Assembly (NCBI RefSeq): GCF_000026545.1
Contig: NC_011601.1
Source of the DNA: Escherichia coli O127:H6 str. E2348/69
Lineage (GTDB): Bacteria > Pseudomonadota > Gammaproteobacteria > Enterobacterales > Enterobacteriaceae
Length of the DNA: 64,000 nucleotides
Direction: 5' to 3' (one strand)
The position numbers and the translations under genes were made by a program. Below, in pieces: positions 16,280 to 16,816 of this stretch. The number at the start of each line of letters is the position of its first letter. The first letter of the stretch is position 1. Under the pieces are notes generated by a model that had not been told where the DNA came from, did not search any database, and saw only the letters and a list, made by a program, of their open reading frames with translations.

Positions 16280-16296
16280 TAGCTACGTTTCCGCTA

Positions 16297-16380
16297 TCAG
16301 TTCAGAAGCTGAAGCAGAAAGCGGATCAGTTCCAGCAGCGCAATTAACGCCCCAAGAACGATGATTGCTTTATCAATCAC
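16297..16380 (-). CDS. dinQ: DinQ small membrane toxin (type I toxin-antitoxin-like, SOS-induced)
   Basis: Minus-strand reading gives ...(V/M)IDKAIIVLGALIALLELIRFLLQLLN*. Coordinates are for the 27-aa GTG-initiated form; a longer in-frame ATG lies at 16413. Confidence 0.7.
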   Translation of the reverse strand: MIDKAIIVLGALIALLELIRFLLQLLN

Positions 16381-16572
16381 CCGTTTTCTCCATGCGATGG
16401 AGTGAGAATGCATCCGCTTACTCATCCATTGCCTGTCACGGCGCATGTCTCATTGTTAGATGACGACTATCTCACTCCGGCCAGAGCATCAGTTAACGGC
16501 ACCACCCGTACTTCAGACCAGGACTTTGAAAGCGTTTATGCGCATTGCCAGAGTGAAAATGTCTCAGAACCA

Positions 16573-16592
16573 ACTGGATAATCATACAGTAC
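16573..16592. promoter_or_regulatory. LexA (SOS) box-like operator, probably for the dinQ promoter
   Basis: actggataatcatacagtac, i.e. CTGT-N8-CCAG on the opposite strand, one mismatch from CTGT-N8-ACAG. Confidence 0.55.
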
Positions 16593-16644
16593 TTGCGGGT
16601 TATAAAACCAGCATGTCCTTGCAATAGTTTCAGTATGGTATTAG

Positions 16645-16737
16645 CATTGATGCGTTAGATGATGGCTATCTCACTCCAGCCAGAGCCACCAACTCAGGGC
16701 TGAACAGTAAAAAAACCGACGCGAAGTCGGTTTTTTT
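16645..16737 (+). ncRNA. agrB: agr-like antisense sRNA repeat with intrinsic terminator (agrB-type regulator of dinQ)
   Basis: ctatctcactccagccagagc (16666..16686) is a near-identical direct repeat of 16467..16487 and is followed by the terminator aaaaaaaccgacgcgaagtcggttttttt. Exact 5' end and strand not determined. Confidence 0.45.
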
Positions 16738-16816
16738 ACGTCCTGATTCAGACCTCCTTTCAAATGAATGCCCAACGCTTAATTCACACCTACACCTTTC
16801 TCTACACTTACATATT

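Follow-up and report, generated by a model that had tools for sequence, protein, structure and literature searches.

The DNA between gorA and arsC of Escherichia coli O127:H6 str. E2348/69 raises the question of whether this strain carries a reduced form of the antisense RNA module that controls the DinQ toxin in K-12 and, if so, whether control of the toxin is changed. We addressed it in a window of 64,000 nucleotides (the whole stretch analysed, to which all positions refer unless stated otherwise), in which the RefSeq annotation of E2348/69 places gorA at 14891-16243 (plus strand), dinQ at 16297-16380 (minus strand) and arsC at 16914-17339 (plus strand). The locus is the known SOS-induced chromosomal dinQ/agr type I toxin-antitoxin module, in a natural form with one antisense RNA gene. 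This one-agr form is an ordinary strain polymorphism and a minor structural variant of a well-characterised system. We put at roughly 0.8 the probability that it is a deletion derivative that works by a K-12-like mechanism, with a cognate agrA-type antitoxin and with toxin control expected to be intact.

The DinQ peptide that an earlier note on this DNA had located on the minus strand is indeed there, since the coding sequence at 16297-16380 is both an open reading frame and a RefSeq annotation. It encodes a small hydrophobic toxin of 27 aa with a single transmembrane segment and a GTG start (MIDKAIIVLGALIALLELIRFLLQLLN), and E2348/69 shares its accession (WP_001295215.1) with K-12 and K-12-like genomes; the toxicity of the peptide and its neutralisation by an sRNA were shown by experiments in K-12 (PMC3567139, PMC5066626). 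Upstream of it, a putative LexA operator, CTGTATGATTATCCAG (16589-16574, minus strand), overlaps both the dinQ -10 element (TATGAT, 16586-16581) and +1. K-12 dinQ has the identical operator, which has been defined experimentally and has an HI of 4.83 (PMC3567139), and the site is invariant across all the aligned strains that have the promoter. The LexA box of the earlier note is this same site, although the interval given for it (16573-16592) was 1-3 nt off, the 20-mer lying at 16572-16591. The bare CTGT-N8-CCAG pattern is not significant alone, with 4 occurrences found in the window vs 1.5 expected. As for the weak second LexA operator of K-12 (HI 13.82), the corresponding stretch differs here at a few bases (alignment columns 353-358).

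By homology with K-12, the primary dinQ transcript would start at 16574 and extend over ~330 nt of the minus strand (16245-16574, the 3' end being approximate). The position of +1 was set from the K-12 numbering, according to which agrB pairs with dinQ G88-A119 (Kristiansen 2016, PMC5066626), and four landmarks fit it: sequence 2, where G94 to position 106 reads GCCGGAGUGAGA(G/U); position +44, which is a U at 16531; the GUG start, which falls at +195 (16380); and the distance from +1 to the gorA-proximal hairpin, which is ~330 nt and equals the published length of ~330 nt (PMC5066626, PMC3567139). An inverted repeat with 12-nt arms that are 100% complementary (16250-16280), lying between the stop codon of gorA and the 3' end of dinQ, is the terminator hairpin common to both genes; in K-12, the dinQ terminator lies a few nt 3' of the gor stop codon (Weel-Sneve 2013, PMC3567139).

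All the cis elements of the published translational switch, namely sequences 1 to 4, U44, the Shine-Dalgarno sequence and the GUG start, are conserved in this transcript. Sequence 1 (UUUUCACUCUGGC, 16547-16559, minus strand, +16 to +28) is conserved with respect to K-12 and is paired with sequence 2 in the predicted fold of the +1 RNA. Sequence 3 (+167 to +178) and sequence 4, which is the Shine-Dalgarno sequence (+182 to +187), together occupy 16388-16408 on the minus strand and are equal to those of K-12 in the alignment, and in the same predicted fold the 3:4 hairpin hides the ribosome-binding site, with 6/6 Shine-Dalgarno bases paired. The folds predicted for the +1 RNA (1:2 plus 3:4 pairing) and for the +44 RNA (2:3 pairing) are those of a 5'UTR in which four elements pair in mutually exclusive ways and which would be activated by processing at +44. 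On the plus strand, opposite the dinQ 5'UTR, there is an ORF of 57-59 aa (16402-16581 in the window, 1709-1882 in locus L005 and 1109-1282 in locus L129), which some RefSeq genomes list as a "hypothetical protein", which is un-annotated in E2348/69 and which probably results from a false gene call across the dinQ leader.

The mechanism that we propose combines the K-12 experiments with this sequence conservation in E2348/69. LexA would repress dinQ through the operator that covers -10 and +1, and DNA damage would lead to a ~330-nt +1 transcript that would be translationally inert, because pairing of sequence 1 with sequence 2 would keep the 3:4 hairpin closed over the Shine-Dalgarno sequence. 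Loss of the first 43 nt would then allow sequence 2 to pair with sequence 3, opening the Shine-Dalgarno sequence to translation of the 27-aa membrane toxin from GUG. A constitutive agr RNA of ~86 nt would pair through its first 33 nt with dinQ +88 to +120, sequence 2 included, and such pairing would both close the Shine-Dalgarno hairpin again and provide a duplex for RNase III.

The suspicion of a reduced module had come from a 21-nt motif, CTATCTCACTCC(G/A)GCCAGAGC, of which exact plus-strand copies were found at 16467-16487 and 16666-16686, precisely as reported before, with none expected from 100 shuffles of the window. The full repeat is 33 nt long (16455-16487 and 16654-16686), with 30/33 identical positions and a spacing of 199. 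The earlier note had treated the first copy as an agr-like repeat without a terminator. This copy is neither an agr-like gene deprived of its terminator nor a decayed agr gene; it lies inside the dinQ transcript (+88 to +120, minus strand, containing sequence 2), in K-12 as well as here, and is the antisense target in the dinQ 5'UTR. The repeat is thus present in three copies in K-12 (dinQ target, agrA and agrB) vs two in this strain.

The second copy is the antisense domain (16654-16686) of a single agr antisense sRNA of ~86 nt (16654-16739, plus strand), in which it is followed by an internal stem-loop and by a putative rho-independent terminator, GTAAAAAAACCGAC-GCGAA-GTCGGTTTTTTTAC plus a U-run (16707-16739, plus strand). 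The observation that only this copy is followed by a terminator was correct. The gene has its own putative sigma-70 promoter (16619-16647, plus strand), composed of TTGCAA (16619-16624), a 17-nt spacer and TAGCAT (16642-16647), which stands back to back with the dinQ promoter. This promoter is of the agrA type and is identical to the region upstream of agrA in K-12, O145 and E. albertii; in K-12, agrA is transcribed from the promoter TTGCAA-N17-TAGCAT (PMC3567139). The predicted product is a divergent sRNA that does not overlap the toxin gene and has complementarity, over its 5' ~31-34 nt, to a part of the toxin 5'UTR that precedes the ribosome-binding site. The automated promoter and terminator scan missed the promoter, which with 8/12 matches was under threshold, and also the terminator, whose A/U-extended stem absorbs the T-run; both elements were read directly and are backed by homology, Rfam and folding.

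[quoted passage not shown] The K-12 type of arrangement, in which two agr genes are separated by a spacer of ~145 bp, was not found in the window, where the spacer is absent and there is one AgrB match. The alignment with K-12 did not disclose an intact agrA plus an intact agrB and, together with the Rfam result, confirmed the proposal of the earlier note that the antisense module is reduced to one agr.

An alignment of the gorA-to-ars region of five strains provided insight into the origin of this single gene. The window is colinear with the K-12-like and O145 loci, and the sole large difference is a gap of 231-235 bp that begins within agrA and ends at the corresponding position of agrB. On its 5' side, the surviving gene displays the agrA promoter, the agrA antisense octamer and an agrA-type body, the latter marked by 7 consecutive A residues and a terminator loop of GCG as in the agrA of O145, KE47 and JNE25-005 (the E. 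albertii agr has the A7 run and a GTA loop). On its 3' side, the flank GTCCTGATTCAGACCTCC is of the agrB type and runs into the ars promoter. Orthologs of agrB are marked by a promoter of their own, TTGCAA-TGTTAGCCACTGGCTAA-TAGTAT, placed after the inter-agr spacer, whereas the window gene combines the agrA promoter with the agrB flank. Judged by its sequence, the single agr is a hybrid, mostly agrA, and the alignment indicates a deletion by recombination between the tandem near-identical agrA and agrB that removed the ~145-bp spacer and one gene copy. The crossover probably took place in or just 3' of the 3' half of the terminator, the likeliest interval being 16723-16745 (plus strand) on the basis of a few diagnostic SNPs that gene conversion between the copies could blur.

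A different polarity, in which the single agr would be ancestral and the agrA plus agrB of K-12 a later duplication, so that nothing would have been lost in E2348/69, seems unlikely to us. It agrees with the presence of one AgrB match beside dinQ in E. albertii (L007), in Escherichia sp. E1V33 (L102) and in a divergent Escherichia labelled E. coli SCPM-O-B-8794 (L039), and with the fact that the dinQ/agr octamers of these three loci are of the window type or of another agrA type. However, their single genes bear an agrA-type flank (GATTCGGAC...), while that of the window gene is of the agrB type (GATTCAGACCTCC) and joins the ars promoter exactly as the DNA 3' of agrB does in two-agr strains. 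In E. albertii and E1V33, the agrA-type 3' flank leads into unrelated DNA and there is no ars promoter. On account of its agrB flank, we consider the window agr a deletion derivative whose architecture was not acquired by common descent with E. albertii and E1V33. Moreover, L039 keeps the inter-agr spacer up to the -35 element of agrB, which implies that the duplication is older than the split of its lineage, and strains KE47 and JNE25-005 have the dinQ target allele of the window yet carry both agr genes. The agrA flank of E. albertii and E1V33, the spacer in L039 and the two genes of KE47 and JNE25-005 together argue that the two-agr state is old and that the window form is derived.

L039 also displays a separate deletion (1390-1680 of that locus) that starts at the agrB -35 element and ends in the 3' part of arsB, so that agrB, arsR and most of arsB are lost and agrA and the spacer are kept. 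In the scan of genome contigs, the 17-base pattern GCCACCAACTCNGGGCTG gave at least 120 loci, mostly chance matches in high-GC genomes; only L007, L028, L033, L039, L050 and L102 are relevant among the matches listed, from which E. fergusonii, E. marmotae and the E. coli representative may be missing.

The deletion derivative keeps most of what is known of dinQ-agrAB in K-12 (PMC3567139, PMC5066626, RF02891): the site by gorA, the DinQ peptide, the LexA operator and the 5'UTR switch elements are all retained, and so is a divergent antisense RNA of ~85 nt that would pair through its 5' 33 nt with dinQ +88 to +120. It differs from K-12 in having one agr whose promoter and antisense domain resemble those of agrA, the active antitoxin of K-12 being agrB; in the target/antisense octamer, which is GACGACTA/GATGGCTA here vs AAGAACTC/AAGAACTC in K-12; and in the deletion of the downstream arsR and arsB. 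With E. albertii and E1V33 it shares one agr with an agrA-type promoter, and the dinQ target octamer of E. albertii (GACGACTA) is that of the window, its agr octamer (GATGACTA) being near-identical. The module also resembles tisB/istR-1, where a small membrane toxin is controlled by LexA, the primary transcript must be processed at its 5' end to become active and a divergent sRNA pairs upstream of the ribosome-binding site. Nevertheless, its sequences are unrelated to those of tisB/istR-1 and of the tandem zor/orz, and the copy-number variation of these systems involves whole modules, whereas here the antitoxin gene alone is duplicated or reduced.

Whether the reduction affects control of the toxin depends on how well the remaining RNA matches its target, and we used predicted 33-nt core duplexes as the measure of this match. 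A full-length agr:dinQ duplex (-83 kcal/mol) was discarded as unrealistically extended, because it ignores intramolecular structure. The K-12 agrB:dinQ core has 32 Watson-Crick pairs, no G·U pair and 1 mismatch (-59.6 kcal/mol), and that of K-12 agrA with the same target has 26 Watson-Crick pairs, 4 G·U pairs and 3 mismatches (-44.1 kcal/mol). The window agr and the window dinQ formed 30 Watson-Crick pairs and 2 G·U pairs with 1 mismatch (-59.0 kcal/mol), the mismatch being an A·C at the R position of the repeat that is common to the functional K-12 pair. When the K-12 RNAs were paired with the window dinQ, agrB gave 28 Watson-Crick pairs, no G·U pair and 5 mismatches (-43.1 kcal/mol) and agrA 29 Watson-Crick pairs, 3 G·U pairs and 1 mismatch (-56.3 kcal/mol). 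E. albertii shows the pairing type of the window, predicted at -59.6 kcal/mol, with one G·U pair in the variable octamer vs two for the window agr.

These values bear on the possibility that the agr that survives is an agrA relic without function and that DinQ is uncontrolled or silenced otherwise, which we judge somewhat less likely still than an ancestral single gene. The window agr is agrA-like in promoter, antisense domain and body, and in K-12 it is agrB that represses translation of +44 dinQ and protects the cells, whereas agrA neither represses it nor protects against UV, a failure blamed on mismatches in its antisense region (PMC3567139, PMC5066626). However, those are mismatches with the K-12 dinQ target (-44.1 kcal/mol), while in the window the dinQ octamer GACGACTA faces GATGGCTA with two differences that are accommodated as G·U pairs (-59.0 kcal/mol). 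In addition, agrB-null K-12 is sick and UV-sensitive, so that an intact LexA-regulated dinQ without control would be unlikely to last in ~14% of genomes. Since the window pair equals the K-12 agrB pair and is far better than the K-12 agrA pair, and since the switch elements are conserved and the published folds reproduced, we have moderate-to-high confidence that DinQ control is intact in E2348/69 and that the predicted antitoxin of this strain is the agrA-type RNA. The idea that the reduction could alter the control of DinQ toxicity is thus unsupported by the predicted energies (-59.0 vs -59.6 kcal/mol) and by the occurrence of the same pairing type in E. albertii. A literature search found no paper on agr in EPEC and no agr expression data for E2348/69.

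A collapse of two tandem agr copies during assembly, possible in principle because they are near-identical repeats of ~85 nt placed 231-235 bp apart, is hardly credible, since 16200-16950 of the window is a 100% match to the finished E2348/69 chromosome, ordinary reads resolve a repeat period of 231 bp, and a single agr is found in several independent complete genomes and in two haplotypes (the window type in RIVM_C029670 and, judging by its one-piece match, DLL557, and the RM13322 type).

We also compared which agr gene best fits dinQ in different lineages, for which 17 loci were sampled. The octamer that follows GTTAGAT varies by strain and is of at least four types (GAYGRCTA, AAGARCTC, RATGGYAT and GTGGGCWW). 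The best partner was agrB in K-12 (-59.6 vs -44.1 kcal/mol) and in L9, which has three identical 33-nt repeats to those for which the K-12 energies were computed; in MLI121 and WCHEC96200 (-59.6 kcal/mol, agrB being scored alone); in FCI1 (-63.7 vs -46.1 kcal/mol); and in SJC33, where the octamer match was the sole criterion. It was agrA in 97-3250 (-55.0 vs -42.7 kcal/mol), in JNE25-005 (-56.9 vs -43.0 kcal/mol, computed for this strain) and KE47, whose three 33-nt repeats are identical to those of JNE25-005, and in O157:H7 (-52.8 vs -47.3 kcal/mol). In O145 both genes scored equally (-59.5 and -59.9 kcal/mol).

The preferred partner of the dinQ target is agrB in one strain and agrA in another, a pattern that points to gene conversion between the three repeats. 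Our opinion is evenly balanced on the broader scheme in which conversion of the octamer among dinQ target, agrA and agrB would generate a lineage-specific cognate antitoxin, the deletion would be tolerated only with a cognate agrA, and the degeneracy of agrA would be a K-12 peculiarity. As an agrA x agrB deletion keeps the antisense domain of agrA, strains should tolerate it only if agrA is their cognate gene, and this expectation holds for both single-agr haplotypes seen (E2348/69 and RM13322). The idea is only partly new, since T1TAdb remarks that AgrA is found only in some strains and chooses the more stable interactor (PMC8594479). If these predictions are right, the DinQ antitoxin of E2348/69 and related B2 strains would be a single agrA-type RNA, and reagents from K-12 may not transfer, K-12 agrB being predicted as a poor partner (-43.1 kcal/mol) and K-12 agrA as a good one (-56.3 kcal/mol) for E2348/69 dinQ. 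More generally, direct repeats common to target and antisense genes cause deletions and specificity swaps, and this locus would be a compact example, although the practical consequences of the one-agr finding are small.

The arrangement is not peculiar to E2348/69. Some match to the locus was obtained in 5,422 of 5,426 complete E. coli genomes, the unique inter-agr spacer that denotes two agr genes in 3,842 of the 5,426 (~71%; absent from 1,584), and the unique dinQ promoter/5'UTR segment in 4,610 of them. By subtraction (4610 - 3842), one agr with an intact dinQ promoter would be present in ~768 genomes (~14%), and the dinQ promoter is lost in ~812 (~15%), both figures being approximate. We resorted to subtracting the counts of the two unique segments because a junction-spanning BLAST, which joins split pieces and would make coverage non-discriminating, had to be rejected for counting single-agr loci. 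There are at least two independent single-agr haplotypes, the window type, represented by E2348/69 and RIVM_C029670, and the RM13322 type, with an agr equal to the agrA of 97-3250. DLL557 was matched by the 751-nt query over its full length, in one piece and with 99.6% identity, which indicates the window-type architecture. A literature search found no study that deals with the copy number or phylogroup distribution of agr or with the polymorphism itself.

A 552-bp form of the locus, seen in six listed genomes (NC101, 83972, SaT040 and three others), is 199 bp shorter than the window, a difference equal to the repeat spacing. In NC101 and SaT040, which were aligned, the deletion lies between the repeat inside dinQ and that of agr and takes the LexA box, dinQ +1 to +87 and the agr promoter; the sites are at 1756-1841 of the NC101 locus (L003) and 556-640 of the SaT040 locus (L132), and SaT040 has, besides, a variant DinQ protein accession. 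The dinQ/agr module is probably dead in the genomes that are without the dinQ promoter segment. PGAP annotates dinQ even where promoter and 5'UTR are deleted, and surveys of presence or absence of the ORF only would overestimate functional dinQ/agr loci. In ETEC L7_E1373 (L133, 1-1314), an IS element of the InsQ/TnpB family stands in place of dinQ and the distal 5'UTR, leaving a stub of the dinQ promoter and both agr genes as orphans.

Downstream of agr, the window carries the ars promoter region and a remnant of arsB (16740-16913, plus strand): the promoter occupies 16740-16847, the last ~57 nt of arsB begin at ~16848, and arsC starts at 16914. The alignment, with the K-12 arsB 3' end as reference, showed that arsR and all of arsB save those ~57 nt are deleted, with the junction at ~16848, and arsC (16914-17339) thus follows the ars promoter directly, without a repressor gene. 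The same junction is found in O145 RM9873, which has two agr genes, and in NC101, so that the ars deletion is independent of agr copy number. In JNE25-005, MLI121 and KE47 (L129, L130 and L137), the DNA 3' of agrB carries an arsR-like regulator and then arsD, vs arsRBC in K-12, which makes at least three forms of the ars cluster next to agrB. Other RNA families matched above their gathering scores in the window were GadY (38440-38553, 150 bits), the ES205 sRNA (32589-32660, 106.5 bits) and the shuA/chuA 5'UTR thermoregulator (22886-22917, 60.1 bits), and a sub-threshold REP-like naRNA4 fragment (17387-17419) lies just 3' of arsC.
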